64,000 nucleotides of DNA from PVC group bacterium. GTDB lineage: Bacteria; Omnitrophota; Gorgyraeia; B26-G9. The translations under genes were made by a program, and so were the position numbers. The notes under the pieces are model-generated. The model was not told where the DNA came from and did no database searches. It saw nothing but the letters and a program-made list of their open reading frames with translations. This document shows, piece after piece, positions 4,735 through 34,485 of this stretch (position 1 is its first letter; each line of letters begins with the position of its first letter). The stretch spans positions 142,755-206,754 of the forward strand of contig JAAEQR010000195.1 of the NCBI GenBank assembly GCA_024231215.1, read 5' to 3'.

Positions 4735-5376
4735 ATGGAAAAACAGAACATAATCTTAGTTGGCGGCGGCGGACATTGCCGGGCTTGTATTGATGTTATT
4801 GAGGCGCAATTCAGATACAGAATTGTTGGGATAGTTGATGCCAAAGAAATGATGCATAAGAAGGTTTTAGGGTATGAAATCATTGGTTGCGAGCAGGATT
4901 TGCCGAAATTACTTGATGGTTGTGACAATTTTTTTATCACAGTCGGGCAGATTAAAACTGCCGATGTAAGGATAGAGAAGTTTGAATATTTGAAAAAATT
5001 AGGAGCGAAATTCCCGGTAATAATATCCCCTTCTGCCTATGTAGCTGATTCTGCTCGGATTAGTGAGGGGACAATAGTAATGCATGGTGCGGTTGTAAAT
5101 GCGCAGGCAGTGGTTGGGAAAAATTCCATTAGTAATACTGGAGCGATAATAGAACATGATGCAAGTATCGGTGATTATTGTCACATAGCAACCGGAGCAG
5201 TTGTGAATGGAGAATGTGTTATCGGAGAACGAGTGTTTATTGGGAGTAATAGTGTTATTTCAAATGGCGTTAATGTTGAGAGTAATGTTGTGATTGGTGC
5301 AGGTTCCACAGTTATTAAAAGCATTCTTGAGTCGGGAACATATGTGGGCAATCCAGCTAGAAAAGTGAATGGTTAA
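4735..5376 (+). CDS. NeuD/PglD-family sugar N-/O-acetyltransferase (N-terminal Rossmann-like domain plus left-handed beta-helix)
   Basis: MEKQNIILVGGGGHCRACIDVIE... N-terminal domain followed by hexapeptide repeats (IGDYCHIATGAVVNGECVIGERVFIGSNSVI). Confidence 0.75.
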   Translation: MEKQNIILVGGGGHCRACIDVIEAQFRYRIVGIVDAKEMMHKKVLGYEIIGCEQDLPKLLDGCDNFFITVGQIKTADVRIEKFEYLKKLGAKFPVIISPSAYVADSARISEGTIVMHGAVVNAQAVVGKNSISNTGAIIEHDASIGDYCHIATGAVVNGECVIGERVFIGSNSVISNGVNVESNVVIGAGSTVIKSILESGTYVGNPARKVNG

Positions 5377-5390
5377 TACTAAAGGAGTAA

Positions 5391-7504
<2,114 letters not shown>

Positions 7505-9958: not shown

Positions 9959-10864
9959 ATGAACGAATCTTCTTGTTCGATAGTTTTAGGTACCGTACAG
10001 CTTGGTTTTTCTTATGGGATAGCTAATAAAACAGGCCAGCCGGATCAGGAAACAGTCAATAACATTGTGCGTATAGCCTGGAAACAGGGTATAAGAGAGT
10101 TTGATACGGCTCAGGATTATGGAGTAAGCGAGCAGGTTCTTGGGATTGCTTTTGAAAAACTGGGTATATCATCGCAGGCAAGGGTTATCAGTAAGATAGA
10201 TCCTGAAATAGATCATTGTGATCGGGAAGTGATGGTTAAAGCAGTTGAAACATCTTTGACAAAAATGTGTATACCAAATCTTTTTGGCTTAATGCTACAC
10301 AAAGAAGAATTGTTGGAACAATGGTCAAAAGGATTAAAAGATATATTTCTTGGATTTAGAACTTCAGGAAAAGTTAAAAAACTGGGGGTGTCTGTGTATT
10401 CACCGGATAAAGCGGAAGAGGCTTTGAATCTAGAAGGGATTGATCTCGTACAGATTCCCTCCAATATCCTGGATAGAAGATTTGAAAGAAAAAATATTTT
10501 TGAGCTCGCTAATACGAAAAAAAAACAGATTTATATAAGAAGTGTTTTTTTACAGGGTCTTATCCTTATGGGAGAGGGAGAAATCCCTGACTATATGCTT
10601 TTCGCAAAACCAATTATTGATAAGATAAAGCAGCTTTCTTTAAAGTTGAATATGTCTAAACAGGAGCTGGCTTTATTATATTTAAAACAAAAAGCTCCTG
10701 ATGCAAAACTGGTTATCGGATCAGAAACAAGTCAACAGGTCATGAAAAATGTTGATTGCTGGAGGAAAGATGCTTCGAAGGAGCTGGTTTCATCTGTATC
10801 AGAGACCTTTGACCAGGTGGATGAAAAGATTCTTAATCCGTCGTTATGGAGAAGTAAATCATGA
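9959..10864 (+). CDS. Aldo/keto reductase family oxidoreductase
   Basis: LGTVQLGFSYGIANKTGQPDQETV...REFDTAQDYGVSEQVLG typical AKR N-terminus. About 300 aa. Confidence 0.7.
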   Translation: MNESSCSIVLGTVQLGFSYGIANKTGQPDQETVNNIVRIAWKQGIREFDTAQDYGVSEQVLGIAFEKLGISSQARVISKIDPEIDHCDREVMVKAVETSLTKMCIPNLFGLMLHKEELLEQWSKGLKDIFLGFRTSGKVKKLGVSVYSPDKAEEALNLEGIDLVQIPSNILDRRFERKNIFELANTKKKQIYIRSVFLQGLILMGEGEIPDYMLFAKPIIDKIKQLSLKLNMSKQELALLYLKQKAPDAKLVIGSETSQQVMKNVDCWRKDASKELVSSVSETFDQVDEKILNPSLWRSKS

Positions 10865-12654
10865 TAATTACGTTTATTCAGGCCAGAATGTCTTCAACCC
10901 GTTTTCCGGGTAAAGTGCTTAAACATATACTGGGCAAACCAATCCTGCAATTACAGATTGAGAGAGCCCGGGCCTGTAAAACCGTAGACAAAGTAGTTGT
11001 GCTTACCAGTATTTCTGAAGATGACCGGCCGATTGTGGATATGTGTAAAAAGATTAATGTGGATTTTTTTTGCGGCAGTCTGGAAAATGTTTTGGATAGA
11101 TTTTATCAGGCGGCAGTAAAGTTTAAACCGGATCATATTATTCGCCTGACAGGAGATTGCCCTTTAATTGATGCCAAAGTTATTGATGATATGGTTAAGC
11201 TCTATTTAAAAGAAGAAGGAGATTATGGTACCAATTGTGTTCCCGTAACTTATCCGGATGGATTAGATGCGGAGATTCTTACATTTAAAGCACTTCAAGT
11301 CGCGCATACTGAGGCAGTGCTTCCGTCTCATCTGGAGCATTTAAGCCTCTTTTTTGAGGAACAGTCGGAGCGTTTTAAAATAGTGAATTTGGCAAATAAT
11401 ACTGATCTTTCTTCGCTGCGCTGGACAGTAGACGAATCAGAGGATTTCGAATTTGTAAAGGCAATATTTGAGGAACTCTATCCTAAAAAACCCTTATTTT
11501 GCATGCAGGATGTTCTGGACTTGCTCAAAAGAAGGCCTGAGCTGATTTTGCTTAATAATCGTTTTAACAGGAATGAGGGGCTGTTTAAATCAAAAGAACA
11601 AGATAATGTTTTTCTTGAAGGGAAAACTTCAACTAATATGTCTAATACTGTTTCGATTTTATTCAGAGTGGATGTGTATGAAAAATTGGGGTTGGGACAC
11701 TTGTCCCGGTGCAGGTCATTAATGGCGGCTTTTTTGCATTACTCCGAATGTCAATTTGCGGTATTAAGCAATAATGAAACAGTGGTTAGAGAGTTTATCC
11801 CAAATATTGCGTTTGATTTTTACCATAACCGTAATGAACTGAAAAATACTAATTTTGATATTCTAATAGTGGATGTGCCTGATATCGCGTCTGGAGAAGA
11901 TGAAGATTTCCGGGGAGTGGCAAAATTAGTTGTTTGTATCGAGGATGCAGGCCGGGGCTTAAGTTATCAGAATATTCTTATTCGTCCGAATCTGCTTAAT
12001 TTACCGATAAGTCCTAATCTGAAAATAGCAAAGAATAATTACTGGTCGGGACGGGATTATATAATTTTGCATAATGATTTTGCGAAACAGGTTGTTCGTA
12101 ACGATGTGCCTAAAGAAAAAGCCGAAGAGTTACTGCTCTGTTTCGGCGGTAGTGACCCTTGTGGATTGACTTTACGTGCAATACCGCTGTTTAAAGAGCT
12201 TGAAGGTAATATTAGTTTTCATGTAGTGATTGGTCCAGCATTTTCATGGAAGGATGAGGTTTCTTCTATAATCAATGATGATGCTCGTTTTCATTTAAGC
12301 ATTAACTGCCAGAATATGGCAGAACATTTTTCTAAAGCGGATATCGCTTTAATTAGCGGAGGCACAATGCTCTATGAGGCTTGTGCGATGGGAACACCTG
12401 CGTTAGTTTTTTCGCAAAACCAAGAGCAGGAGATTGAAGCCAAAATATGCCAGGCAGCAGGGGCGGTTGCGAGCCTTGGTGTAAGTAAGTCTGTTTCAGA
12501 TGATAAAATTTTTAGTGCGGTAAAGAAAATTATCAGGGATACCGATTTGCGGTTGAATATGGCAAAAGCAGGGCCTAAAATTGTATCCTCTGACGGAGCC
12601 GCGCACATTGTGTCTAGTTTACTTAAATATATCAAAAAAGAGAGCATAAAATGA
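10861..12654 (+). CDS. Fusion protein: SpsF/FlmC-like cytidylyltransferase domain plus PseG/SpsG-like UDP-2,4-diacetamido-2,4,6-trideoxy-L-altropyranose hydrolase domain (CMP-nonulosonic acid activation)
   Basis: N-terminal IITFIQARMSSTRFPGKVLK...LTGDCPLID (CMP-KDO-synthetase-like nucleotidyltransferase fold). C-terminal LLCFGGSDPCGLT...ISGGTMLYEACAMGTPALV (GT28-C/PseG-like). Confidence 0.7.
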   Translation: MIITFIQARMSSTRFPGKVLKHILGKPILQLQIERARACKTVDKVVVLTSISEDDRPIVDMCKKINVDFFCGSLENVLDRFYQAAVKFKPDHIIRLTGDCPLIDAKVIDDMVKLYLKEEGDYGTNCVPVTYPDGLDAEILTFKALQVAHTEAVLPSHLEHLSLFFEEQSERFKIVNLANNTDLSSLRWTVDESEDFEFVKAIFEELYPKKPLFCMQDVLDLLKRRPELILLNNRFNRNEGLFKSKEQDNVFLEGKTSTNMSNTVSILFRVDVYEKLGLGHLSRCRSLMAAFLHYSECQFAVLSNNETVVREFIPNIAFDFYHNRNELKNTNFDILIVDVPDIASGEDEDFRGVAKLVVCIEDAGRGLSYQNILIRPNLLNLPISPNLKIAKNNYWSGRDYIILHNDFAKQVVRNDVPKEKAEELLLCFGGSDPCGLTLRAIPLFKELEGNISFHVVIGPAFSWKDEVSSIINDDARFHLSINCQNMAEHFSKADIALISGGTMLYEACAMGTPALVFSQNQEQEIEAKICQAAGAVASLGVSKSVSDDKIFSAVKKIIRDTDLRLNMAKAGPKIVSSDGAAHIVSSLLKYIKKESIK

Positions 12655-13374: not shown

Positions 13375-14076
13375 ATGAACAAAAGAACATACATTGTAGC
13401 GACTATAAGAGAATGGAATATTTCTGCTTTCAAAGATGTTATAAGTAAGTATCCAGGTACCTGGCATTTGATAACAGATAAAAAAGAATTAACAATTAAA
13501 AGAATAAAACAGATAAAACCGCGGTATATTTTCTTCCCTCATTGGAGTTTTAAGGTGCCGAATGTGATAACAGAGTTTAGCGAATGTGTTTGTTTCCATG
13601 AGACAGAGGTGCCTTTTGGACGCGGGGGCAGCCCCATACAAAATCTGATTATGCGGGGATATGAAAAGACAAAAATATCCGCTTTAAAAATGACAAAAAA
13701 ATTAGATGCAGGACCTGTGTATCTAAGAAGAGATTTAGGATTAGATGGACTGGCGGAAGAAATTTTCATAAGGTCTTCAAAAATAATAGCTGGAATGATA
13801 AAAGAGATAATTCATAAAGAACCGTTACCTAAGGCACAGAAAGGAGAAATCGTGGTGTTTAAAAGGCGTACCCCGGAACAAAGTGTTATGACTAAAAAGC
13901 TGAAGAGTTTAGATGAAGTGTTTGATTTTTTACGGATGCTAGATGTCGCGGAATATCCCCGGGCATTTTTTGAGCGTGATGGATTAAGGTATGAGTTTTC
14001 CAGGCCGGCGCTTAGAACAAGCGCTATTGAAGCCGATGTTCGCATTACAAAGTGTAAAAACAGGAGCAAGAAATGA
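13375..14076 (+). CDS. Formyltransferase-fold protein (second copy, short form), typical partner of WbqC-like genes
   Basis: PHWSFKVPNVI...CFHETEVPFGRGGSPIQNLIMRG...KKLDAGPVY resembles the Formyl_trans_N core. The internal ATG at 13375 avoids overlapping wbqC. Confidence 0.55.
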   Translation: MNKRTYIVATIREWNISAFKDVISKYPGTWHLITDKKELTIKRIKQIKPRYIFFPHWSFKVPNVITEFSECVCFHETEVPFGRGGSPIQNLIMRGYEKTKISALKMTKKLDAGPVYLRRDLGLDGLAEEIFIRSSKIIAGMIKEIIHKEPLPKAQKGEIVVFKRRTPEQSVMTKKLKSLDEVFDFLRMLDVAEYPRAFFERDGLRYEFSRPALRTSAIEADVRITKCKNRSKK

Positions 14077-14771
14077 TCTTAGAAAATTATAATAAAATAT
14101 TAACGTTTTTCGCTCATCCTGATGATGAGACCTTGGCCGCCGGAGCTACTATTTCCAGGCTTAGCAGTTTAGGCGCAAAGGTGCATATAGCTATTCCTGC
14201 AACAGGTATTCACGGGCGTCGAAATTCATCCTCAAGGCAGTCAAGAAATAATGAACTTGCTAAATTAAGAAAAGATTGTCAAAAAGCCTGTGCCGCGTTG
14301 GGTGTTGATAATAAGCATATTTATCTGGGAGAATTTGCCGATAATGAAATGGACAAGAGTTCGTTGCTTGAAGTTATTAACTGGTTTGAAGACATAATTG
14401 CTAAGGTTAAGCCGGATTTGATTCTTACTCATCATCGGTATTGCACGAACATAGATCATCAGTACTCTCATCAGGCCGCGATAGTTGCTTCAAGGCCGGC
14501 GGCAAACAGTCATATTCCGATATTATGCGGAGAGGTTCCCAGCAGCACAGGATATCTAAAGCCTGTTCAATGGGAGCCGAATTTATATGTTGAAGTAACC
14601 GAAAAGAATGTAGAAGCAAAAATCTGCGCGATGCAGTTATATGAAGGGGAGGCTCGTCCGGATCCTCATCCCCGGTCACCGGAGGTATTAAAGGCTTTGG
14701 CAAAAGTGCGCGGTTCTGAATCCGGATTTATGTTCGCGGAAGCATTTATGATCCAGCGCATATTTAGCTGA
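14073..14771 (+). CDS. PIG-L/LmbE-family N-acetyl-sugar deacetylase
   Basis: ILTFFAHPDDETLAAGATISRL...LTHHRYCTNIDH (HPDDE plus H..D.H zinc-hydrolase motifs). Confidence 0.8.
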   Translation: MILENYNKILTFFAHPDDETLAAGATISRLSSLGAKVHIAIPATGIHGRRNSSSRQSRNNELAKLRKDCQKACAALGVDNKHIYLGEFADNEMDKSSLLEVINWFEDIIAKVKPDLILTHHRYCTNIDHQYSHQAAIVASRPAANSHIPILCGEVPSSTGYLKPVQWEPNLYVEVTEKNVEAKICAMQLYEGEARPDPHPRSPEVLKALAKVRGSESGFMFAEAFMIQRIFS

Positions 14772-14790: not shown

Positions 14791-15864
14791 ATGTATATAA
14801 CTATAAACAATAGAAAGATTGGGAAAGGTAAGACTGTATATATTATTGCTGAGTTGTCGGCTAATCATAATCAAAGCATAGATAAAGCTATAAAGCTGAT
14901 CGAAGTAGCCAAGCAGGCAGGTGCTGATGCCGTAAAAATACAGACTTATACCGCTGATACCATGACCATTGATTCTGATAAAGAATGGTTTCAGATCAAA
15001 GGGACAATTTGGGAAGGGAATAATCTATATAAATTATATCAGGAGGCATTTACTCCTTGGGAATGGCAGTCACAGTTAAAACAAGTTAGCGAGAAGCTGG
15101 GGCTTGATTTCTTTTCTACCCCGTTTGATGTTACGGCAGTGGATTTTTTGCAGGGATTGAATGTCCCGGCATATAAGATTGCTTCATTTGAGCTTGTGGA
15201 TATCCCGCTGTTGAAAAAGATTGCGATTACTGGTAAGCCGGTGATTATGTCTACAGGAATGGCGACTCTAGAAGAAATAGACGAGGCAGTACAGACGCTT
15301 GTCTTAGCGGGTAATAAACAGCTGGTATTGCTCAAATGCACAAGCGCATATCCGGCAGCTGCCCAAGAGATGAACTTAAATGCCATTAGCTATATTTCAG
15401 AGAAATACAAAGTACCGGTTGGTCTTTCCGATCATACACTGGGCAGCGCTGTTGCTGTGGCTGCGGTTGCGTTAGGGGCATGTATTATTGAAAAACATCT
15501 CACCTTGACCCGCAAAGATCCGGGGCCTGATGCGACGTTTTCAATGGAACCCGCGGAATTTAAATCTATGGTTGATGATATAAGAATCGTAGAAAAGGCC
15601 TTGGGGAAAGTATCTTTTGAAGTGACGGAAAAGGAGAAAGAAAATCGTGTATTCCGCCGGTCATTGTTTGTAGTTAAAGATATTAAAAAAGGCGAGACTT
15701 TTTCTGCAAAAAATATACGTTCCATACGGCCGGGGCATGGATTGCACACAAGATATTTAGAGCAAATTTTAGACAAAAAAGCAGTCAAAGACATAGAAAA
15801 AGGGACGCCGCTGAACTGGAATTTAGTGGAAGGGTGTAATCGGGATGAGAAAGGCAGAGCATAA
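14791..15864 (+). CDS. pseI: Pseudaminic acid synthase (NeuB family, with C-terminal SAF/antifreeze-like domain)
   Basis: KTVYIIAELSANHNQSIDKAIKLIEVAKQAGADAVKIQTY...PAYKIASFEL...STGMATLEEIDEAV...GLSDHTLG. The C-terminal SAF domain is FSAKNIRSIRPGHGL. Confidence 0.85.
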   Translation: MYITINNRKIGKGKTVYIIAELSANHNQSIDKAIKLIEVAKQAGADAVKIQTYTADTMTIDSDKEWFQIKGTIWEGNNLYKLYQEAFTPWEWQSQLKQVSEKLGLDFFSTPFDVTAVDFLQGLNVPAYKIASFELVDIPLLKKIAITGKPVIMSTGMATLEEIDEAVQTLVLAGNKQLVLLKCTSAYPAAAQEMNLNAISYISEKYKVPVGLSDHTLGSAVAVAAVALGACIIEKHLTLTRKDPGPDATFSMEPAEFKSMVDDIRIVEKALGKVSFEVTEKEKENRVFRRSLFVVKDIKKGETFSAKNIRSIRPGHGLHTRYLEQILDKKAVKDIEKGTPLNWNLVEGCNRDEKGRA

Positions 15865-16869
15865 ATGATAAATGTTAATACACGAAACATCTCTCCGGAG
15901 GTTGCAGGTACGGATAAGCAACTGGGGCTGGTATTTAATGATAAAAAGTGGATTGAATACCGTAGAAAATGGGATGAAAACCCTAAACAGGGAATTGTGG
16001 AAAAGGTTCCATTGCAGATTGATCTATTTGCGGTTGATATATGCAATTTAAAATGCCCGATGTGTCCAAGGCAGGCATTTATCCCCGGAAAAGGATATAT
16101 GGATACAAAATCAATAAAGAGAATCCTGGATCAGGGGGCAGAGCATGGATTATGTGCCTTTAATTTTTCCGGATTGGGTGAGCCGACCTTACATCCTGAT
16201 GTGTTGGAAATTATCAGATATGCAAAGGAAAAAGGTGTTGTTGATGTGAATATGCATACAAATGGAACGCGTTTAGGCGCTGAATTCAATAAAAAGCTGC
16301 TTGAATCAGGGCTGGACAGGCTTATTGTTTCGCTTGATAGTGCGGATAAACAAAGATATGAGAGTATTCGTATAGGAGCAAGCTTTGAAAAGGTTTATGC
16401 CGGGGTTGAGGATTTGATTAAACAACGAAATGACCATAAGAGTGCAAGATTGCATATTAAAGCTAACTTTATAGAAATGGATGAAAAAGATGATACTGAA
16501 AAAAATAAGTTTATAACGTATTGGAAGGGCAAGGTCGATAGGATCGCAGTGTTGCGTTATCTTGATTGTAAGGATGTGGAGAGGCTTTTTTGGAAAGAAA
16601 ACTATGTTCAGGATAATGATTTTTGTTGTCCTGAACTATGGCGCAGATTGATAATCCTGAGTGATGGCACGGCAACTCTTTGCCCCAGAGATATGCAAAA
16701 GCATCATATAATCGGAAATGTCAACGACAAAACCATTTCAGAGATATGGACAGGGGAAAAGATTCAAAAGATTAGAGATATGCACCGGAAAGGTTGTTTT
16801 AAAGAGCTGGGTTTTTGTGCGGATTGTCCTGATTCTTATGATAAAAAGAAAGATGAGCAGAAAAAATGA
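15865..16869 (+). CDS. Radical SAM enzyme with C-terminal SPASM-type auxiliary cluster domain (paralog 1)
   Basis: CNLKCPMCP CxxxCxxC motif. C-terminal CCPELW...SDGTATLCP...GCFKELGFCADCP cysteine pattern typical of SPASM. Confidence 0.75.
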   Translation: MINVNTRNISPEVAGTDKQLGLVFNDKKWIEYRRKWDENPKQGIVEKVPLQIDLFAVDICNLKCPMCPRQAFIPGKGYMDTKSIKRILDQGAEHGLCAFNFSGLGEPTLHPDVLEIIRYAKEKGVVDVNMHTNGTRLGAEFNKKLLESGLDRLIVSLDSADKQRYESIRIGASFEKVYAGVEDLIKQRNDHKSARLHIKANFIEMDEKDDTEKNKFITYWKGKVDRIAVLRYLDCKDVERLFWKENYVQDNDFCCPELWRRLIILSDGTATLCPRDMQKHHIIGNVNDKTISEIWTGEKIQKIRDMHRKGCFKELGFCADCPDSYDKKKDEQKK

Positions 16870-17879
16870 AAAGGAATTGGAAAATAAAATCAGGGGTTTT
16901 AACAAAGATAAAAAATCTTTATAAAAAAGGTGGATTAAATCCCAGGTTTTATGCGTATCGCTATTGTTTCAATAGCTATCCTGATAATTTCAAGATCAGC
17001 AAATATCCATTTGATATAATTGCGGAGGCTTCTAATGTTTGCAACCTGAGATGCTCCATGTGCTTTCAGGTCGATGATGAACTTCCGGTTCGGACAACGA
17101 CAAAAGTTCCTTTCATGAAGATGAATTTGTTTAAAAAAATTACTGATGAATGTGCGAAATATAAGGTACCTGCTTTAAAATTAAGTTGGCGGGGTGAGCC
17201 AATGTTAAATGAAAACTTCACAGAAATGATCAGATATGCAAAATCCAAAGGGATCTTAGAGGTTACGTCTTTAACTAATGCGACATTAATGCATGAAAAT
17301 ATTTGCCGGGAAATTGTATCTGCAAAAATGGATCAGATTGTTATTTCCATAGATGGTTTTACAAAAGAGACATATGAAAAAATCAGGATTGGTGCTGATT
17401 ATGACGTTGTGTGTAATAATATAAAAAATTTACTTAAAATAAGAGGAAAGTCAAACAAGCCTTTTATTAGATTGCAATATACGGAATCTGATATAAATAA
17501 GCATGAAACAGAGAGATTTTATCATTATTGGAAAGATAAGGTCGATGAAATAACTGTGTCGTATTGTCAGGATTTTGGCTCTACTGAGAAGATTGATCCC
17601 GAGGATATTCCGGCACATAGCTTTGTTTGCAAACAGCCTTTTCAGCGCTTGGTTATTATGACTGACGGGACTGTTTGTGTTTGCGCTACAGATGTTATGG
17701 GTGAAATTTCAATAGGCAATATCCAGGACTCAAAGCTTATAGATTTATGGAATTGTTCTAAAATTAATGAGCTTCGCCAACAGCATAAGGCAGGGAAATA
17801 TCAGCATAATCCAATGTGTCGTATTTGCGTGCATAATGTATTCATGGCCAACAAAAATGCGGGTCTTTCTGTTAAATAA
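16866..17879 (+). CDS. Radical SAM enzyme with C-terminal SPASM-type domain (paralog 2)
   Basis: CNLRCSMC motif. C-terminal CKQPFQRLVIMTDGTVCVCATDVMGEI...CSKIN...CRICVH. Similar length and architecture to the upstream gene. ATGA start/stop overlap. Confidence 0.75.
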   Translation: MKRNWKIKSGVLTKIKNLYKKGGLNPRFYAYRYCFNSYPDNFKISKYPFDIIAEASNVCNLRCSMCFQVDDELPVRTTTKVPFMKMNLFKKITDECAKYKVPALKLSWRGEPMLNENFTEMIRYAKSKGILEVTSLTNATLMHENICREIVSAKMDQIVISIDGFTKETYEKIRIGADYDVVCNNIKNLLKIRGKSNKPFIRLQYTESDINKHETERFYHYWKDKVDEITVSYCQDFGSTEKIDPEDIPAHSFVCKQPFQRLVIMTDGTVCVCATDVMGEISIGNIQDSKLIDLWNCSKINELRQQHKAGKYQHNPMCRICVHNVFMANKNAGLSVK

Positions 17880-21504: not shown

Positions 21505-21524
21505 GAAGGCATCAAAGAAAGAAG

Positions 21525-22208
21525 ATGGGTAGAGTGATGGTGTTAATTGATATACTAAAAAATCTGAAAAAGTTAATTCGATTACTTATCGATTTAAGAA
21601 AAACACGAAAAAAATTCCCCACATGTCAGATTTATAACAGCACCATTATCGATTCTAACTCAGTATTAGGGGGATATAATTTGATATGTGAAAATGTAAT
21701 AGCTATAAATTCCTATATAGGAGAGCATACTATTGTGCAAAAAAATACTACAATATTTAATTCAGAGATTGGTAAATTTTGCGGTATTGCTGCAAGATGT
21801 AGTGTGGGACAAGGAAGACATCAAACAACCTTTGTAAGTTCTCATCCAGCTTTTCATAGCAATCAAGAAATCCTGGTAAAATCTTTTCATGAAGAATCTG
21901 ATAAGGTAATATCAAAGCGTACCTGTATTGGACATGATACTTATATTGGAGAAAATGCTATGATTATGGACGGCATTAAAGTTGGCATAGGGGCGGTAAT
22001 AGGAATGGGGGCTGTTGTAATAGAAGATGTGCCAGATTATGCAATTGTTTTTGGGAATCCCGCTCGAATATATAAGTATCGTTTTGAAAAAGAGATAATA
22101 AAAAAACTTTTAGAAACTAAATGGTGGGATATGCCTGTAGAATTTTTTGAAAAAAATGGAAAATGTTTTAATAATCCCGAAACATTTTTTAAATGTCTAG
22201 ATTTGTGA
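21525..22208 (+). CDS. Hexapeptide-repeat (left-handed beta-helix) acyltransferase, xenobiotic/sugar O-acetyltransferase-like
   Basis: Hexapeptide repeats [39 protein letters not shown], then FGNPARI. The start could also be the ATG at 21537. Confidence 0.65.
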
Positions 22209-22295
22209 AATTAATAGACAAAGATTTTAATTAATTTATTCATTATATATACAATAAAATATTTAAATATAATGCATTTGTAACAAGGTAATAAT

Positions 22296-24077
22296 ATGAA
22301 AAAAAAGAGGTCTTTTTTAGAGATTCAAGAGATGCTTAGCAGCTCGGATATATCTAAATGCCCAATTTTGGAAATTGCAGTTCTTCGTAATGTGATTCTC
22401 GAACCTATAGAGCAGTACTTGAGATACGAAGCTTTTAAAATAGGATTTGCTGCCAATGTTAAATTGGGGGAATATGATAATATTTTTCAGGAGGCTGCTG
22501 GAGGTAATAATATATTATTTAGCAAAAATACAGATTGTGTTCTCATCTTTATGAAAATGGAAACAGTATCGTGGGATATCTCACGCAACTTTGCCGTACT
22601 TAAAGCTTCTCAAATTAGCGATGAAATTGAGCGTATTAAGGGTTATGTTGTTAACATCCTTAAAGGTATTCGATTGCAGTCCAATGCTATGATTTTGTGG
22701 CATGGTTTTGAATATTTGATTAACCCAAGCTTTGGGATTTGTGACAGCCAAATCAAAAATGGACAAAATAGTACGATTAGAGACTTAAATAATTTTTTGC
22801 AAACTAAAATACAAGATACCCCCAATGCTTATTTTGTTGATCTTAATATATGTTTAACAAGAGTAGGCGCTCAAGAATTTTATGATTTTCGATATTGGCA
22901 TATCGCGAAGGCCCCCTATTCAAAAAAAGCTCTTCAGCAAATATCATCGGAGGATTTTAAATATATTCGCGCTCTCAAAGGTAAGAATAAAAAATGTCTT
23001 ATCCTAGATTGTGACAATACTCTCTGGGGTGGAGTTGTTGGAGAGGATGGGTTTTCTAACATTAAATTGGGTAGAAATTATCCAGGATCTTCATATTTCG
23101 AATTTCAACAAGAGGTTGTTAATCTATACCATAGGGGCATCATTATTGCTCTTTGCAGTAAGAACAACGAAGAAGATGTTTGGGAAGTTTTCAATACCCA
23201 TCCAGATATGATTCTTAAGGCGGAACATATTGCTACCAGTCAAATTAACTGGCAAGATAAAGCTTCCAATATTCGTCAAATTGCATTGGATTTGAATATT
23301 GGATTGGATAGTATTGTGTTTATGGATGATAGCGAATTTGAAATAAAACTAATTCGTAATGCTCTACCTGATGTGACAACTATACATCTTTCCGAGAAAA
23401 ATGCTGTAGAATACAGAGAGATATTAGCATCATGTGGATTGTTTGATACGATAACTATTGCTAGTGAGGATAAAAATCGTGGTGTTGCTTATAGGGCTGA
23501 AGCTAATAGAAAAAAACTCATGAACCAAATTATTTGCATGGAGGATTATTATAAATCATTAGAAATGATCTTAGAAATTAATTTTGCTAATAATTTTAAT
23601 ATACCTCGCATTGCTCAGCTGACACAAAAAACTAACCAATTCAATTTGACTACAAAGCGGTATAACGATGTGGATATAAAGGAAATGTCAGAAAGTAATA
23701 ATTTTGATGTTATATCTATTAGCCTTAAGGATAAGTTTGGTAATTCGGGCATTATTGGTGTCTGTATTCTGAGATACAAATCCAGGAAGGCAAGCTTTGA
23801 TACTTTTCTTCTCTCGTGCCGCGCTTTAGGGCGTGGTGTTGAAAATGTATTTGTTGTCCAGGCTTTAAGGCTGGCTAAAAAACGTGGCAACCAGCTTGCT
23901 ATAGGTGAATATTATGCCACTCGGAAAAACAAACAAGTCGAGAATTTTTATGAAAAAAATAGTTTTATAGAAAATAATGAAGAAAACTTGAAGGCAGATG
24001 GAATATTTTGCTATGACTTGCAAGAAAAGATAAAAACTCAACCACATTTCTTTAAAGAAATTAAATCAGAAATTTAA
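22296..24077 (+). CDS. FkbH-like protein (HAD-superfamily subfamily IIIC phosphatase domain with DxDxT motif, plus C-terminal acyltransferase-like domain); predicted glyceryl/acyl loading enzyme for the adjacent ACP
   Basis: KCLILDCDNTLWGGVVGEDG (HAD motif I). ...IALCSKNNEEDV... and ...VFMDDSEFE... (HAD motifs III/IV). 593 aa with an N-terminal extension as in FkbH-family proteins. Immediately followed by a stand-alone ACP. Confidence 0.65.
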   Translation: MKKKRSFLEIQEMLSSSDISKCPILEIAVLRNVILEPIEQYLRYEAFKIGFAANVKLGEYDNIFQEAAGGNNILFSKNTDCVLIFMKMETVSWDISRNFAVLKASQISDEIERIKGYVVNILKGIRLQSNAMILWHGFEYLINPSFGICDSQIKNGQNSTIRDLNNFLQTKIQDTPNAYFVDLNICLTRVGAQEFYDFRYWHIAKAPYSKKALQQISSEDFKYIRALKGKNKKCLILDCDNTLWGGVVGEDGFSNIKLGRNYPGSSYFEFQQEVVNLYHRGIIIALCSKNNEEDVWEVFNTHPDMILKAEHIATSQINWQDKASNIRQIALDLNIGLDSIVFMDDSEFEIKLIRNALPDVTTIHLSEKNAVEYREILASCGLFDTITIASEDKNRGVAYRAEANRKKLMNQIICMEDYYKSLEMILEINFANNFNIPRIAQLTQKTNQFNLTTKRYNDVDIKEMSESNNFDVISISLKDKFGNSGIIGVCILRYKSRKASFDTFLLSCRALGRGVENVFVVQALRLAKKRGNQLAIGEYYATRKNKQVENFYEKNSFIENNEENLKADGIFCYDLQEKIKTQPHFFKEIKSEI

Positions 24078-24089
24078 TAGGAGGTTATT

Positions 24090-24314
24090 ATGAAAGAGAA
24101 GTTATTCAATATTTTAAGACGAGTTGCAAAGGTTTCAATTGAAGAGGTGAATGAGGAGTCATCACCTGATACGATTGATTCATGGGATTCTTTAACGCAT
24201 ATTAACTTAATTTTGGCAATTGAAGAGGAGTTTGAAGTGAATTTTTCTCATGATCAAATAGCGAGAATGCAGAGCTTTAAATCAATAGTAGAATGTTTAA
24301 ATGAGAATCTGTAA
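24090..24314 (+). CDS. Stand-alone acyl carrier protein
   Basis: 74 aa, four-helix pattern with the phosphopantetheine attachment motif DSWDSLTHINL. GGAGG RBS 6 nt upstream. Confidence 0.85.
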   Translation: MKEKLFNILRRVAKVSIEEVNEESSPDTIDSWDSLTHINLILAIEEEFEVNFSHDQIARMQSFKSIVECLNENL

Positions 24315-24344
24315 ATACAGAAGGATAATAGCAGTCTGGGATAT

Positions 24345-25253
24345 TTGAAGATGAAAGAAAGACTTTTGAAATATCTCTTCAGCAAAAACGCAAGGCACAA
24401 GAAAAAAGTCGAAACAGCGTTTGGAAAAAATCCAGATATGCTTTTTGACCTTGAAAAGTTTCTTGATCGATACGATTTATTCATGAAAAATGAAAGAATA
24501 ACTGTCGAAGAACTTGTAGACGCCTATCTTCTAATGCTTGAGCAAATGATGATAGCACGCTTGATATTTCTCAGAACAGGTAGGTATCCATCTAGTTCTC
24601 AGAAAGAGTCTTATGATAACGTTTATAGCAATAAAAAGGTTATGCGAAATTATATGCTTGGCCTTGCTCTTTCACAGTTTTTATGGGAGCACCATTATAA
24701 GATATTCAAGTTTTATTGTGATGAGCTTCTGTATTTGAGAAAGCACAGGGTGTGTTTAGAAATAGGCTCAGGGCATGGGCTTTTTACTTTAGAGTTCCTA
24801 GATAGGATAAGAGACTTTGAGACTCTTGATGTAATTGATATAAGCAGTACTTCTCTAGATATAACACGGGGAATTATTAAAACCCTCAAGTTAGAATGTC
24901 TGAAAAAAGTGAACTTTATTAAGGCAGATGTAAATCTATATCAACCACTATCCCAGTATGACTTTATTATGATGGGAGAAGTTTTAGAACATGTGGATGA
25001 TCCTTTAAAGATGCTTAAAAACGTTTATAGGCTGCTAGCTGCTGAAGGTTCTTTCTATTTGACGACATGTGCAAATGCACCTGCGATGGATCATGTCTAT
25101 CTTTTTAACAATGTCGATGAGATAAGGATGCTTATAAAAGAGGCAGGTTTTTTAATATCAAAAGAACTTGTTGTGCCATCAGAATGCAAGAATTGGAAAG
25201 AAATAGAGTCACAAAAAATTGATATATCTTACGCGGCACTACTTGCAAAATAA
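24345..25253 (+). CDS. Class I SAM-dependent methyltransferase
   Basis: VCLEIGSGHGLFTLEF (motif I), DFIMMGEVLEHVDDP (motif II/III). Confidence 0.7.
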   Translation: MKMKERLLKYLFSKNARHKKKVETAFGKNPDMLFDLEKFLDRYDLFMKNERITVEELVDAYLLMLEQMMIARLIFLRTGRYPSSSQKESYDNVYSNKKVMRNYMLGLALSQFLWEHHYKIFKFYCDELLYLRKHRVCLEIGSGHGLFTLEFLDRIRDFETLDVIDISSTSLDITRGIIKTLKLECLKKVNFIKADVNLYQPLSQYDFIMMGEVLEHVDDPLKMLKNVYRLLAAEGSFYLTTCANAPAMDHVYLFNNVDEIRMLIKEAGFLISKELVVPSECKNWKEIESQKIDISYAALLAK

Positions 25254-25266
25254 AGGTTCATTTATT

Positions 25267-26706
25267 ATGATAAGTCGTAATTTTACATTTGAAGATCAAG
25301 AAAACTTTGCACAGCTTTCCGGTGACTATAATCCTGCGCATTTGGATGAAATAGCTACTCGTAGATTTCAATTTGGAAAGCCTGTTGCGCATGGAGTTCA
25401 CCTGCTTTTATGGACACTTGATTGCTGGCTAAAGGATCATTATGAATATGTGAAATTACGTTCATTGAAAGTTGATTTTAAAAAACCGGTATTTTTAAAT
25501 GAGAATGTACATTGTTTTTTTTATTCGCACACAGATGATAGAGTTAGCATTGAAGTTTCAATAGAAGATTCTGTAATTGCAAATATAGAAGTAGAATGGA
25601 GTACTTCAAGATTGTTTTTAGATAATAAACTGTGCGGAAAAGATCCAGATCGCCTTAATTGTAAAGTTTTGAATGCAGAAAAAGTCACTACTGTTTCAGG
25701 GAAATTAGATTTATGTGTTAACGAGGAGACTTCCTCAAAATTATTCCCTGTCTTGACTAAAAAAATGCCATTACAACAGTTAGCGGAGCTACTTGCAGTT
25801 ACAAGACTTGTGGGAATGGAGTGCCCAGGATATCATTCTGTATTATCTGCATTAGATATATCTTTTGTTGATAATCCCGATGCTCTATTAGAATTAACAT
25901 ATAATGTTTCTGAATATGACAAAAGATTTTCTTTGTTATCGATAAACTTACGAGGCCCTAGTCTAAATGGTACAGTAAGAGCATTTTTTCGACCGCCCCC
26001 TAAAAGTCAAAAAAGCATTTTTTGTTTACGCAAAAAAATTACCAATAAAGAATTTAAAGGGCAAAATGCGTTAATAATAGGTGGTTCTCGTGGGTTGGGG
26101 GAAGTTGCCGCTAAGCTTCTTGCCGCAGGTGGAGCAAATGTGAAAATAACGTATTATAGAGGCAAAGAAGATGCACTCAAGATAGTTGATGAGATAGTTT
26201 CAGTGGGAGGGTATGCTGATTGTACGCCTTTTAATATATTGGATATAGAAAACGCTTTGTCTAACAAACTAATTGCCGAAACAAAAATAACTCATTTGTA
26301 TTATTTTGCTACACCATCTATCTTTGCTATTAAATATAAAAAATATTTTTCTTCAAAGCTATTTAAAAAATTCTGTAAATATTATGTGACAGGGTTTGAG
26401 TCAACAGTGAACAGTTTGTGTGCAATATCTCCGGGAATAACGAATATTTTTTATCCATCTTCGATCGCTATTGATGAATTACTGCCATCTTTGGCTGAAT
26501 ATACTTGCGCTAAAGTAGCGGGTGAGATTTTGTGCAATTTGCTTGAGAAATATCATAAAGGATTATCCATTTATAAACCGCGTTTACCCAGAATGGCTAC
26601 GGATCAAACAGCTAGTGTTTTGATCCATAATAGTCAAGATGCTGCTCCAGTTATGCTTGGGCATATTAGAAAATTTTGTGACATGAAGAAAAAAGAAGTT
26701 TATTGA
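25267..26706 (+). CDS. Bifunctional MaoC-like (hot-dog) dehydratase / short-chain dehydrogenase-reductase fusion
   Basis: N-terminal FEDQENFAQLSGDYNPAHLDEIATRRFQFGKPVAHGVHL (MaoC hydratase motif). C-terminal NALIIGGSRGLGEVAAKLLAAGGANVKITY (Rossmann TGxxxGxG-like) with downstream Y...K. The start is moved to ATG 25267; the ORF-track TTG start overlaps the upstream gene. Confidence 0.65.
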   Translation: MISRNFTFEDQENFAQLSGDYNPAHLDEIATRRFQFGKPVAHGVHLLLWTLDCWLKDHYEYVKLRSLKVDFKKPVFLNENVHCFFYSHTDDRVSIEVSIEDSVIANIEVEWSTSRLFLDNKLCGKDPDRLNCKVLNAEKVTTVSGKLDLCVNEETSSKLFPVLTKKMPLQQLAELLAVTRLVGMECPGYHSVLSALDISFVDNPDALLELTYNVSEYDKRFSLLSINLRGPSLNGTVRAFFRPPPKSQKSIFCLRKKITNKEFKGQNALIIGGSRGLGEVAAKLLAAGGANVKITYYRGKEDALKIVDEIVSVGGYADCTPFNILDIENALSNKLIAETKITHLYYFATPSIFAIKYKKYFSSKLFKKFCKYYVTGFESTVNSLCAISPGITNIFYPSSIAIDELLPSLAEYTCAKVAGEILCNLLEKYHKGLSIYKPRLPRMATDQTASVLIHNSQDAAPVMLGHIRKFCDMKKKEVY

Positions 26707-26732
26707 TGAATAAACAAATCCAAAGGCGCTGA

Positions 26733-27326
26733 ATGATGAAAATGAAAAAACTTAGATTTCAAAGGTTGTATGGCCTGATAAAAGCAGGTATTTTTTTTAT
26801 TTGCAATAAGGGTAAGTATAAGAAACTGGAAATTGGTGCTTTTGTAATCAAACCTTTGCGTTTAAACGGCACCCCACATATGTCTATTTTAAAAGGTGCT
26901 GTTGTTCAGAAATATACCTGGCTGTTTGCTTTGCAGATAGATGAACATGTTCCGGAATTAGTTATAAAAGAGGGGTGCTCGATAGGAGATTTTAACCATA
27001 TTGCTGCAGTCAGGAAAGTTATAATTGGGAAAAATGTTTTAACTGCTAATAGAGTTTATATTTCTGATAATATTCATTGCTATAAAGATGTAAATACACC
27101 TATTATGCATCAGCCCGTTGAATTTAAGTCAGAGGTTGCTATCGGGGATGGTTCCTGGATTGGTGAGAATGTTTGTGTTATCGGCGCTAAGATAGGAAAA
27201 AATTGTGTTATCGGTGCAAATTCTGTTGTAACAAATGATATCCCCGATTACTGTGTCGCTGTGGGTGCCCCGGCCAAGATAATAAAGAGATTTAATGCTG
27301 CAACAAAAGAATGGAAGAAGGTCTAA
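26733..27326 (+). CDS. Hexapeptide-repeat acyltransferase (WbbJ/LacA/MAT-like)
   Basis: IGKNVLTANRVYISD..., IGDGSWIGENVCVIGAKIGKNCVIGANSVV, VAVGAPAKIIKRF. Paralogous to the 40142 ORF. Confidence 0.7.
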   Translation: MMKMKKLRFQRLYGLIKAGIFFICNKGKYKKLEIGAFVIKPLRLNGTPHMSILKGAVVQKYTWLFALQIDEHVPELVIKEGCSIGDFNHIAAVRKVIIGKNVLTANRVYISDNIHCYKDVNTPIMHQPVEFKSEVAIGDGSWIGENVCVIGAKIGKNCVIGANSVVTNDIPDYCVAVGAPAKIIKRFNAATKEWKKV

Positions 27327-27334
27327 AATAGATT

Positions 27335-28132
27335 ATGAAAAGTTGGTTAGCAGAACAATATAAGTCTAAAGCTTCACAATTTGATGCGGAGGTCATTAGC
27401 CGTTATCCTGATTCACAAAAGATATTCAGCGATCCGCATGAATTTTATAAGGGCCTTGTCGGTGAATGGAATTATCTTGATGCTGTCAAGGCTTTAGACT
27501 GGGATAAATATATTAAAAAGGATGCGGTTATTATTGATATCGGCGGCGGGACAGGATGGCTCAGCGCATATATCTCAAGTTTTGAGCAGGTAAAAGAAAT
27601 AAGCCTTATTGATTCAAGCCGATTTTTTTTAGAAAAAATGGTTCCCGAAATGATAAAGCTTATGAAGGGAGTTCCGGAAAAAATCAAGATAGTGGAAGGA
27701 CTTTTTTCGCCATTACTTCTTGATGATGAATCGATTGATGTTGCTTTTATATGTTCATCAATGCATCATGCCGATAATATTTCTAAGTTATTAATTGAAA
27801 TAAAAAGAGTTTTAAAAAAAGGCGGCTATCTTTTTATCTTAAATGAAACCCCATATAATAATTTCTCGTATTTAGGGGCAATTATAAAACAATTTTTAAT
27901 TATTGTCAGAGACATTATTTTTCACCGTTTCAAGGCTGTCTCGACATCAATTGCATCTAACGGATTTTTGTATGATCCGTATTTGAATGATAAGGCATAT
28001 CCCTTCTGGTACTGGGAAAAAGCTATTAAAGAAAGCGGGTTTTTGCTTGCTGATGTGGTAAACACCGGATTATCTACTCTCAAACAAAAAAAAGGGATAA
28101 TGCTAAGGCATTTTATCTGTAGGAAAAATTGA
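27335..28132 (+). CDS. Class I SAM-dependent methyltransferase
   Basis: VIIDIGGGTGWLSAYI (motif I), FICSSMHHADN..., LKKGGYLFI. Confidence 0.65.
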   Translation: MKSWLAEQYKSKASQFDAEVISRYPDSQKIFSDPHEFYKGLVGEWNYLDAVKALDWDKYIKKDAVIIDIGGGTGWLSAYISSFEQVKEISLIDSSRFFLEKMVPEMIKLMKGVPEKIKIVEGLFSPLLLDDESIDVAFICSSMHHADNISKLLIEIKRVLKKGGYLFILNETPYNNFSYLGAIIKQFLIIVRDIIFHRFKAVSTSIASNGFLYDPYLNDKAYPFWYWEKAIKESGFLLADVVNTGLSTLKQKKGIMLRHFICRKN

Positions 28133-28134
28133 AT

Positions 28135-30592: not shown

Positions 30593-30594
30593 CA

Positions 30595-32438: not shown

Positions 32439-32481
32439 TGTTAAATTTAAGGCATAGTTGATATAGTTATAGTGCGTATTT

Positions 32482-34484: not shown

Positions 34485-34485
34485 A

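Follow-up and report, generated by a model that had tools for sequence, protein, structure and literature searches.

A putative FkbH-acyl carrier protein cassette for acyl decoration of a surface polysaccharide, encoded in a pseudaminic acid locus of a PVC group bacterium

The window, the whole 64-kb stretch of DNA analyzed here, contains a capsule/O-antigen locus of ~47 kb encoded on one strand, and all features described below are on the + strand. Within this locus, pseB, pseC, and pseI passed NCBIfam equivalog cut-offs. A NeuD/PglD-type N-acetyltransferase (TIGR03570, 208 bits vs. 161), PseB (536 vs. 408), and PseC (480 vs. 424), the sole DegT-type aminotransferase found across the 64 kb, are encoded at 4735..7504. 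A fusion of a PseF-like cytidylyltransferase (CTP_transf_3, 104.6 bits) with a PseG-like UDP-sugar hydrolase is found at 10861..12654, its PseG model score of 125 bits lying below the cut-off of 153.6, and the pseudaminic acid (Pse) synthase PseI is encoded at 14791..15864 (TIGR03586, 503.6 bits vs. a cut-off of 340). The pse block also includes two formyltransferase-like genes and a PIG-L/LmbE-type de-N-acetylase (14073..14771; PF02585, 87.2 bits), which is the only deacetylase homolog found in the window. Two tandem radical SAM/SPASM paralogs (15865..17879; Radical_SAM and SPASM domains) lie 3′ of pseI, and together with a 609-aa gene, a flippase, and a hexapeptide transferase they separate it from the FkbH cassette, 6.4 kb away on the far side of the flippase. 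The cassette occupies the variable, low-GC center of the locus amid glycosyltransferases and methyltransferases, outside the pse block; genes for a 6-deoxy/C-methyl sugar are located at 34465-36680.

All four open reading frames (ORFs) of the cassette were confirmed. The first (22296..24077) encodes a 593-aa FkbH-like loader of three domains: an extra ~185-aa N-terminal domain (FkbH_N), a HAD-IIIC phosphatase domain, and a GNAT-fold transferase domain carrying Cys508. The NCBI name for this protein is "HAD-IIIC family phosphatase." Its assignment to the FkbH family in an earlier sequence-only reading was borne out by profile searches, with 300.2 bits against TIGR01686 "FkbH domain" (cut-off 146.65), in a match spanning both the HAD and GNAT-fold domains, and 70.7 bits against TIGR01681 HAD-IIIC (cut-off 35.75). 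HAD motifs II to IV, whose absence would have spoken against FkbH identity, are present: in an alignment of 25 relatives, motif I (D238/D240, DCDNTLWGG), motif II (S288, CSKNN), motif III (K322), and motif IV (D344-D345) are invariant, as is S507-C508-R509. The C-terminal domain resembles GNAT folds (TM 0.6-0.74), and the invariant Cys508 sits directly before an R-x-x-G-x-G loop; we take it to be the acyl-transfer residue, by analogy with work on OzmB. The only solved relative of the loader is Bacteroides fragilis BF1531 (~38% identity; PDB 3SLR), whose crystal structure is limited to the N-terminal and HAD parts and aligns with loader residues 122-389 (E = 3e-50). The BF1531 gene is the first of a capsule locus (UpxY, UpxZ), ahead of an acyl carrier protein (ACP) gene.

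The second ORF (24090..24314), with an AGGAGG ribosome-binding site 7 nt ahead of its ATG, encodes a dedicated 74-aa ACP that narrowly passes PF00550 (21.7 vs. 20.8 bits). A W-D-S motif is kept in 50 of 51 FkbH-neighboring homologs, and the attachment serine is therefore Ser34, the second serine of DSWDSL, which agrees with the earlier claim of an ACP with a conserved attachment serine. The third ORF (24345..25253, likely starting at ATG 24351) encodes a class I SAM methyltransferase (Pfam Methyltransf_23/12/11, with weak BioC and UbiG matches) comprising a UbiG/BioC-like core and an N-terminal extension of ~120 aa. The fourth (25267..26706) encodes a fusion of a double hot-dog (MaoC-type) dehydratase with an SDR reductase (PF01575, 53.5 bits; adh_short, 26.5 vs. 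26.6 bits), with a true start at 25267 and a length of 479 aa, in agreement with the NCBI record. It has 1956 relatives, and fusions of the same type adjoin FkbH in loci L001, L002, and L088 of the comparison described below. Its invariant residues include the hydratase motif D20/H25, GGSRGLG, S398, and Y412-x3-K416, and an AF2 model (pLDDT 85) consists of two hot-dog units and an SDR fold. The proposed methyltransferase, dehydratase/SDR, and hexapeptide transferase identities were thus upheld by Pfam matches, invariant catalytic residues, and the fold model.

Hexapeptide transferases flank the cassette on both sides. Downstream, 26733..27326 encodes a left-handed β-helix acyltransferase that is a diverged WbbJ/Maa-like protein (Hexapep; WbbJ 114.9 bits, below the cut-off of 243) and a candidate acyl-ACP:sugar transferase. 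The proteins of solved structure nearest to it are Maa, LacA, the N-acetyltransferase WlbB, and the sialic acid O-acetyltransferase NeuO. Upstream by 88 bp of the FkbH gene, and additional to the genes listed in the sequence-only reading, an XAT/CatB/Vat-like hexapeptide transferase (21525..22208; Hexapep; sub-cut-off matches to TIGR03308, 130 bits, and CatB, 99.5 bits) is an alternative candidate. Both are closest to O-acetyltransferases that use acetyl-CoA (Maa/LacA/WbbJ/XAT). Farther downstream, a BioC/UbiE-like methyltransferase (27335-28132) and a B12-binding radical SAM protein (28129-29622), both identified with Pfam, are translationally coupled to the cassette with gaps or overlaps of <10 bp, but their membership of it is uncertain; the B12-binding radical SAM family also occurs ~6 kb or less from FkbH in L071.

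Clustered at 50% identity, the FkbH family has 13,730 representatives, bacterial as well as archaeal, and with thousands of members in the family, the copy in the window is not special. We compared 88 related loci. In 75 of them, across bacteria and archaea, an ACP is encoded no more than 5 kb from FkbH, and AcpS-type phosphopantetheinyl transferases adjoin FkbH in 11 of the 88. These neighbors, and the fusion of a GNAT-fold domain with an invariant cysteine to the HAD domain, both covered by the TIGR01686 match, make it highly improbable that the 593-aa protein does no more than dephosphorylate a sugar phosphate as a HAD phosphatase, with the ACP, methyltransferase, and dehydratase/SDR as unrelated neighbors, even though the database name would suit such a role and stand-alone members are known from sequence, 3SLR having no assigned function.

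The other neighbors in the 88 loci are glycosyltransferases, flippases, sugar aminotransferases, and deacetylases, a glycan context that is nearly always present and that bears out the glycan association proposed for the cassette. A lipid A or fatty acid module was rejected on the same neighbors. Partners of FkbH vary and include methyltransferases (the family of 24345-25253 in 13-16 loci), deacetylases, and various acyltransferases (hexapeptide, GNAT, AAC(3)-like, or MBOAT), the last two groups being the most frequent neighbors apart from the ACP. In 21 loci, a small hexapeptide transferase is encoded no more than 4 kb from FkbH, and the order of hexapeptide transferase followed by FkbH recurs in L034 and L038; neither 26733 nor 21525 showed specific orthology to the FkbH-linked transferases in the compared loci. 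Three of the five genes that supply hydroxymalonyl- or methoxymalonyl-ACP extender units to polyketide synthases (PKSs) in the FK520 and tetronate pathways have counterparts in the cassette: FkbH, an ACP, and an O-methyltransferase-like gene. However, a dehydratase/reductase takes the place of the oxidases here amid glycan genes throughout, no ketosynthase, acyl-CoA dehydrogenase-like, or 3-hydroxyacyl-CoA dehydrogenase-like oxidase was found across the 64 kb, and no PKS was found beside FkbH in the 88 loci; gene content effectively refutes an extender-unit function.

A MaoC dehydratase adjoins FkbH in 13 of 15 NeuB-positive loci vs. 13 of 73 NeuB-negative loci (Fisher p = 6e-7, with no correction for shared ancestry). 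The NeuB-positive loci with this arrangement span at least eight phyla, including Thaumarchaeota, and cassettes are embedded among nonulosonic acid (NulO) genes in L002, L030, L071, L082, L085, and L086. The proposed link to NulOs is therefore statistically visible for the dehydratase-bearing form, but cassettes of this type are also found where NeuB is missing: L001 has all five cassette families together in a different order, L088 has FkbH, ACP, the MaoC-SDR, and a hexapeptide transferase together, and NeuB is absent within 10 kb of both, as it is from 6 of 10 close ortholog loci. Because of such loci, Pse is a plausible but not a settled acceptor. The proposal that the cassette supplies an acyl donor for Pse gains from the statistical NulO link and is weakened by L001 and L088, by the 6.4 kb between the cassette and pseI, and by the O-acetyltransferase-like character of the candidate transferases.

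The latter evidence is what would be expected if the same path led to an acyl-ACP whose acyl group was placed elsewhere in the repeat unit, without involvement of Pse and with an O-ester as the likeliest linkage, for example on the sugar made by 34465-36680. The position of the cassette outside the pse block, the likeness of 26733 and 21525 to O-acetyltransferases, and the exopolysaccharide loci without NeuB that hold same-type cassettes (L001, L088, and L081) favor this alternative, as does a variant on Sinorhizobium meliloti pSymB in which FkbH and ACP are coupled to an MBOAT protein beside rkp capsule genes, suggesting O-acylation of the finished polymer. It is nevertheless somewhat unlikely in view of the strong enrichment of the dehydratase-bearing form beside NulO synthases, the relationship of 26733 to WlbB and NeuO, and the PIG-L proteins of related cassettes. 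The family of the window PIG-L protein is encoded between ACP and MaoC within FkbH cassettes of three Nitrospinota loci (L044, L057, and L069), and other deacetylases repeatedly adjoin FkbH: Polysacc_deac_1 proteins and Cj1295-like proteins of aminopeptidase fold, the latter in L007, L011, and L050. The suggestion that PIG-L frees the amine that is acylated gains support from the Nitrospinota cassettes and from these other deacetylases, and the PIG-L identity of the window gene was confirmed; the formyltransferase-like genes of the pse block could equally use that amine.

FkbH proteins load ACPs with glyceryl from 1,3-bisphosphoglycerate (PMC7489565, PMC8949500, PMC5318452). The window loader resembles FK520 FkbH, OzmB, and the tetromadurin proteins Mad7/Mad8 and Mad14/Mad12 in domain family, HAD motifs, conserved cysteine, adjacent small carrier, and presumed substrate. 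It differs from FkbH/FkbJ-type systems in its FkbH_N domain, its polysaccharide locus, and its presumed sugar acyltransferase consumer, and the window lacks PKS/NRPS genes, FkbI/FkbK-type oxidases, and a FabH-like tetronate synthase. FkbH-containing PKS loading modules produce D-lactate-ACP (PMC7901079), combining a loader with dehydratase and ketoreductase functions on a carrier-bound C3 unit; the double hot-dog and SDR are the same fold pair as PKS DH-KR, although the window enzymes stand free, are not PKS domains, and descend from MaoC and classical-SDR proteins, and a lactyl product would here be inferred.

Glyceroyl substituents are known on Pse, as in Pse5Am7Gra and Pse5(2,3-di-O-methylglyceroyl)7Ac, and the responsible genes are called unknown in the literature searched. 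In Campylobacter jejuni NCTC 11168, the flagellar glycosylation locus around cj1295-cj1302 is, by its description, a similar case: cj1302 has been noted to have an FkbH domain and belongs to a Pse locus, a strain with a cj1302 pseudogene lacks dimethylglyceroyl sugars, and Cj1295 has been proposed to strip the N5 acetyl from Pse before re-acylation with the glycerate-derived, O-methylated group. No role for cj1302 was assigned in the literature searched. The window differs in having a PIG-L deacetylase rather than an aminopeptidase-fold protein and in having the dehydratase/SDR. The statement that an FkbH/ACP route had not been described was roughly right for the literature searched, with the qualifications that cj1302 had already been noted and that the family is so large.

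Small carriers also feed acyl groups to cell-envelope polymers in Dlt-type carrier-protein/MBOAT systems; in contrast, no MBOAT was detected in Pfam scans of the window ORFs, and transfer would presumably be cytoplasmic, via soluble hexapeptide transferases. The rfbK-O genes of Vibrio cholerae O1 serve the tetronate N-acylation of perosamine; a carrier protein and a hexapeptide-type transferase are proposed to make a small hydroxy-acyl group and place it on this O-antigen amino sugar. There, an adenylating enzyme rather than FkbH loads the carrier, and the acyl group is C4.

Homology and gene neighborhood together suggest that the cassette works as an independent carrier-protein pathway producing a small acyl group of glycolytic origin for the polysaccharide of the locus, with Pse as the leading candidate acceptor (probability roughly 0.55). 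Judging by family membership, the FkbH-like enzyme would take 1,3-bisphosphoglycerate, its HAD domain would remove the 3-phosphate, and glyceryl would pass via Cys508 of the GNAT-fold domain to phosphopantetheine on Ser34 of the ACP. Domain chemistry and PKS precedent suggest that the dehydratase/SDR may then remove the 3-hydroxyl, converting glyceryl to enol-pyruvoyl/pyruvoyl-ACP, and reduce the 2-keto group to give a lactyl-type C3 acyl-ACP, whose hydroxyl the adjacent methyltransferase might O-methylate to a methoxy-acyl group. Gene neighborhood points to 26733 or 21525 as the transferase that would move the acyl group from ACP to sugar. In the least certain step, the acceptor would be Pse or a nucleotide-linked precursor, its amine exposed by PIG-L. 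We are fairly confident in loading and transfer taken together, i.e., that a C3 acyl-ACP is used to decorate a glycan. Pse as the acceptor falls a little short of an even chance, the lactyl/methoxy chemistry is tentative, and acylation at N5 after PIG-L deacetylation is doubtful.

Homologs of the radical SAM/SPASM pair (15865..17879) head the three Nitrospinota cassettes, and the pair may belong to this tailoring set. These homologs, the three radical SAM enzymes in the operon-like array of the window, and the FkbH-ACP pairs of L087 and L090, which lack obvious sugar acceptors nearby, could also indicate that the C3 unit is a glycerate or lactate residue rather than an acyl decoration, e.g., a reducing-end aglycone/primer or a radical SAM substrate. 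This is improbable, as the frequent acyltransferase and deacetylase neighbors of FkbH fit transfer to amines or hydroxyls. A gene set normally known from antibiotic factories is found here in a surface-sugar locus, where it probably makes an unusual acyl decoration.

Every substantial open reading frame (ORF) from 4.7 to 52 kb of the window lies on the plus strand, in one long polysaccharide locus bounded by dnaK/dnaJ (9–1885) and uvrA (57806–60655) in a metagenome-assembled genome of an uncultured PVC-group bacterium. The locus consists of a pseudaminic acid (Pse) block, a variable center, and an export end encoding an initiating phosphotransferase, a PglF-like dehydratase, Wza, Wzi, and Wzz. 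PseB, PseC, and PseI (14791–15864) all score above their NCBIfam equivalog cut-offs (536 vs. 408, 480 vs. 424, and 504 vs. 340 bits, respectively). We did not find a GNAT-type PseH in the window; instead, a NeuD/PglD-type hexapeptide acetyltransferase gene (4735–5376, plus strand) is found immediately 5′ of pseB. A 597-aa fusion protein (10861–12654) matches CTP_transf_3 with 104.6 bits and the PseG model with 125 bits, the latter below the 153.6 cut-off, and is predicted from these matches to be a PseF-like cytidylyltransferase joined to a PseG-like UDP-sugar hydrolase domain. Also encoded on the plus strand of the Pse block are two formyltransferase-like proteins (7534 and 13294), a class III aminotransferase resembling glutamate-1-semialdehyde aminomutase (8501), an aldo-keto reductase (9959), WbqC (12651), and a PIG-L deacetylase (14073). 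The accessory genes at 7534–14076 suggest further nonulosonic acid (NulO) modification of some kind. Two radical SAM/SPASM paralogs (15865–17879) lie in tandem directly 3′ of pseI, and distant homologs of them head FkbH-containing cassettes in three Nitrospinota loci (L044, L057, and L069).

The variable center comprises the two radical SAM/SPASM genes, a 609-aa ORF, a flippase, the acyl-tailoring cassette, five further methyltransferase-type genes, a B12-radical SAM gene, and seven glycosyltransferases. GC content drops to 32 to 35% here (18000–40000), vs. 38 to 41% in the flanks, as is usual for an exchangeable serotype-specific region. Methylation genes are unusually dense at 24345–35736, a stretch that encodes three class I methyltransferases (24345, 27335, and 30583), an FkbM-type methyltransferase (31581), the B12-radical SAM enzyme (28129), and a sugar C-methyltransferase (34465), all on the plus strand. 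The 609-aa ORF (17918–19747) had no significant match in Pfam, NCBIfam, or PDB sequences, and a 422-aa ORF (37750–39018) had none in Pfam or NCBIfam; as a guess, these may be a NulO transferase and a Wzy polymerase. A 74-aa and 593-aa ORF pair at 32482–34484, considered as a duplicate of the acyl carrier protein (ACP) and FkbH genes, coincides with them in length only: the 74-aa product gave no PP-binding match, and the 593-aa product is a double GT2 glycosyltransferase. Promoter and terminator sites at 21000–33000 were no commoner than in shuffled sequence, so the scan is uninformative on operon limits.

By every sequence test applied, the 593-aa protein encoded at 22296–24077 belongs to the FkbH loader family, as the sequence-only reading had proposed. 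It scores 300.2 bits with the FkbH-domain model TIGR01686, about twice the cut-off of 146.65, in a match spanning the HAD and C-terminal domains (residues 232 to 557 on profile positions 3 to 319 of 323), and 71 bits with the HAD-IIIC profile. HAD motifs I to IV never vary in an alignment of 25 sequences (D238-C-D240-N-T, S288, K322, and D344-D345), and motifs II to IV, on which that assignment had been made to depend, are thus present; S507-C508-R509 is also invariant among these relatives. An AF2 model built from the 25-row alignment is good in the N- and C-terminal domains but has pLDDT <50 in the HAD domain, and our structural reading is therefore limited to the former two; the last ∼170 residues adopt a GNAT fold. 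In the sequence, Cys508 directly precedes an R-x-x-G-x-G loop, the element of GNAT enzymes that binds the pantetheine pyrophosphate. In work on OzmB, a conserved cysteine of the C-terminal transferase domain reportedly carries the glyceryl intermediate.

The remaining cassette assignments also held. The ACP (24090–24314) passes the PF00550 threshold narrowly, and its W-D-S motif is retained in 50 of 51 ACP homologs adjoining FkbH genes, which places the phosphopantetheine attachment site at Ser34 in the serine context originally recognized. Profile matches confirmed the methyltransferase (24345–25253) as an ordinary class I enzyme with an N-terminal extension of ∼120 residues. The MaoC dehydratase/short-chain reductase (SDR) fusion starts at 25267, as in the NCBI record, and is 479 aa long (25267–26706); the hydratase Asp/His, the glycine-rich nucleotide loop, and the SDR Ser/Tyr/Lys triad are invariant in 19 relatives, and a model with a pLDDT of 85 places an SDR fold after two hot-dog units. 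Two hexapeptide transferases bracket the cassette, one XAT/CatB-like (21525–22208) and the other a diverged WbbJ-like protein (26733–27326) paralogous to the near-canonical WbbJ at 40142.

FkbH enzymes transfer a glyceryl unit from 1,3-bisphosphoglycerate to a carrier protein (PMC7489565, PMC8949500, PMC5318452), and we take this loading as the first step here: the FkbH enzyme would load glyceryl from 1,3-bisphosphoglycerate onto the ACP. The steps after loading we infer. The MaoC hydratase, run in reverse, would strip the 3-hydroxyl from the 2,3-dihydroxypropanoyl thioester and so give the enol of pyruvoyl-ACP, and the fused SDR would reduce the enol/pyruvoyl-ACP to lactyl-ACP, for which FkbH loading modules yielding D-lactate-ACP provide a precedent (PMC7901079). 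The methyltransferase would then add an O-methyl group, and a hexapeptide transferase would carry the finished acyl group to a sugar. A role for the cassette in the methoxymalonyl-ACP/polyketide pathway (FkbG-K) was rejected on gene content: a Pfam scan of the window ORFs found neither of the two oxidases of that pathway (an FkbK-like 3-hydroxyacyl-CoA dehydrogenase and an FkbI-like acyl-CoA dehydrogenase) and no polyketide synthase as consumer.

An exhaustive search found 13,730 representatives at 50% identity of the stand-alone ∼600-aa form of FkbH, of which 6,041 fall below 1e-30. The closest 120 proteins are 55 to 65% identical to the window FkbH, yet come from many phyla. We compared 88 FkbH-bearing loci (L001 to L087 and the window), made up of 80 loci from species genomes, seven of ten close-ortholog loci, and the window itself; for the other three ortholog loci, the reading was confined to gene content. 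In 75 of the 88, a homologous ACP is encoded no more than 5 kb from FkbH. Recurrent partners, identified by de novo clustering of neighbors, include small hexapeptide transferases (25 loci), a methylmalonyl-CoA epimerase-type glyoxalase/VOC protein (19 loci), the MaoC-SDR fusion (14 loci) or MaoC alone (8 loci), the methyltransferase family of the window (13 loci), AcpS-type phosphopantetheinyl transferases (11 loci, mostly archaeal), two families of polysaccharide deacetylases (9 loci each), PIG-L (4 loci including the window), GNAT/FemAB-like and AAC(3)-like acyltransferases, and sulfotransferases. Deacetylases other than PIG-L adjoin FkbH in ∼20 loci, and a Cj1295-like aminopeptidase-fold protein is encoded near FkbH in three. 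The FkbH-linked hexapeptide transferases were considered as one orthologous family, but those of other loci score no better against the 26733 protein than against its paralogs at 40142 and 21525 and are not its specific orthologs. None of the 88 loci encodes a polyketide synthase, and nearly all encode glycosyltransferases, flippases, or nucleotide-sugar enzymes. The picture that emerges is one in which loader and carrier together furnish glycans with a glycerate-derived acyl group, and in which tailoring enzymes and transferases are interchangeable.

The cassettes take two mutually exclusive forms, one with a MaoC dehydratase (26 loci) and one with a VOC epimerase-like protein (24 loci), none having both. 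A conserved block in Acidobacteriota loci (L008 to L033) encodes a sulfotransferase, VOC, FkbH, ACP, a 376-aa protein, a second sulfotransferase, and a FemAB-like GNAT, which hints at sulfated glycerate-type decorations. On Sinorhizobium meliloti pSymB (L092; CP140934.1, 1032067–1037948), genes for VOC, an MBOAT protein, a “TonB-dependent receptor” (a label we suspect to be wrong), ACP, and an FkbH-like protein adjoin the rkpR capsule export genes; this may be a Dlt-like variant that O-acylates the K-antigen. The window differs from it, as a Pfam scan of its ORFs found no MBOAT. In a Bacteroides fragilis-type contig (L093), BF1531, the gene whose product was solved as a fragment (3SLR), forms the first biosynthetic block in a capsule locus under UpxY/UpxZ regulation, with a ferredoxin/hexapeptide fusion 5′ and an ACP 3′.

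The sequence-only reading had looked to co-occurrence of FkbH and ACP with NulO genes, and this is borne out in part of the family: 15 of the 88 loci encode a NeuB-family synthase no more than 10 kb from FkbH. Of these 15, 13 also have a MaoC dehydratase within 4 kb of FkbH, vs. 13 of the 73 others (Fisher p = 6e-7, kinship among loci being ignored), and only the MaoC form, not the VOC form, is enriched near NeuB. Because the NeuB-positive loci come from many phyla (Acidobacteriota, Verrucomicrobiota, KSB1, Omnitrophota, Clostridium, Thaumarchaeota, and others), a single inheritance event does not explain this pattern. Several loci carry the cassette in the midst of their NulO genes: one (L002) encodes PseB, PseC, an aldo-keto reductase, a 480-aa MaoC-SDR of the same type, FkbH, ACP, a cytidylyltransferase, PIG-L, and NeuB; another (L085) FabH, NeuB, GNAT, a methyltransferase, MaoC-SDR, FkbH, and ACP; and a third (L082) a full legionaminic-type set around the cassette. 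Gene families dispersed between positions 14 and 27 kb of the window are contiguous in the three Nitrospinota loci, which encode, in this order, radical SAM/SPASM, hexapeptide transferase, ACP, PIG-L, MaoC, MaoC-SDR, and FkbH.

On this neighborhood evidence, a role for the cassette as acyl donor for the polysaccharide of the locus is well supported, and the cassette represents a glycan-associated variant of the FkbH loader system with a predicted function. That Pse is the acceptor, the earlier proposal, is about an even bet. The tie between the MaoC form and NeuB speaks for Pse, as does the presence of PIG-L in related cassettes. Since pseC is the only DegT-type aminotransferase gene in the window and PIG-L the only deacetylase homolog found, Pse would be the obvious acceptor if the acyl group is amide-linked. 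Against Pse, and in favor of another sugar of the polysaccharide, the best matches to the exact cassette type of the window, a Syntrophobacter locus encoding all five families (L001) and a Planctomycetes exosortase-type EPS locus (L088), have no NeuB within 10 kb, and NeuB is that close in only 4 of the 10 close-ortholog loci (55 to 64% identity). The window cassette is on the far side of the flippase, in the company of glycosyltransferases, and the transferases at 21525 and 26733 resemble acetyl-CoA-dependent O-acetyltransferases, although the N-acetyltransferase WlbB and the sialate O-acetyltransferase NeuO are also among the solved relatives of 26733. The amine freed by PIG-L could also be used by the formyltransferase-like proteins of the Pse block.

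Glycerate-derived N-acyl groups are known from Pse5Am7Gra in Tannerella forsythia, 7-N-glyceroyl Pse in Vibrio vulnificus, and Pse5(2,3-di-O-methylglyceroyl)7Ac in Campylobacter jejuni, and the genes for the Pse glyceroyl group have been called unknown or “elusive” by two groups (PMC5378307, PMC6120980). In T. forsythia, several unexplained ORFs that break up the pse genes were set aside as foreign to carbohydrate metabolism; none of the best 120 matches to a BF1531 fragment came from Tannerella, all being proteins of other Bacteroidales or of metagenomes. C. jejuni Cj1295 is needed for the dimethylglyceroyl modification and was proposed to take off the N5 acetyl group. Compared with this deacetylation and reacylation model, PIG-L lies 7.5 kb upstream of the cassette in the window and inside it in L044, L057, and L069. 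At the same C. jejuni locus, cj1302 was described in a passing remark as an FkbH-domain gene, and a strain with a cj1302 pseudogene lacks dimethylglyceroyl sugars. The claim that an FkbH/ACP route to sugar N-acylation is undescribed roughly holds, with this remark as a qualification: a literature search, with most subscription journals outside its reach, brought up that remark alone and no paper tying FkbH and an ACP mechanistically to sugar acylation.

N-acyl groups of nonulosonic acids shape antigenicity, phage recognition, and immune evasion. We propose, with a probability of roughly 0.45, that stand-alone FkbH-ACP modules constitute a widespread, biochemically undescribed pathway, in thousands of families from bacteria and archaea, drawing 1,3-bisphosphoglycerate off into glyceroyl, lactyl, and O-methylated C3 acyl decorations of surface sugars, and that the MaoC form would supply the missing path to the glycerate-derived N-acyl groups of Pse and legionaminic acid, including those of N-glyceroyl-Pse in T. 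forsythia and V. vulnificus and of dimethylglyceroyl-Pse in C. jejuni. The window copy is one of thousands, and the value accordingly lies in the family-level hypothesis. If correct, the FkbH/ACP route would give a concrete answer to the genetics of glyceroyl on Pse, bring at least 6,000 sequence clusters into glycan-tailoring enzymology, improve the annotation of genes now named “HAD-IIIC phosphatase,” and provide enzymes with which modified nonulosonic acids could be made. Should the acceptor be another sugar, the cassette would still mark a new source of O- or N-acyl diversity in polysaccharides.
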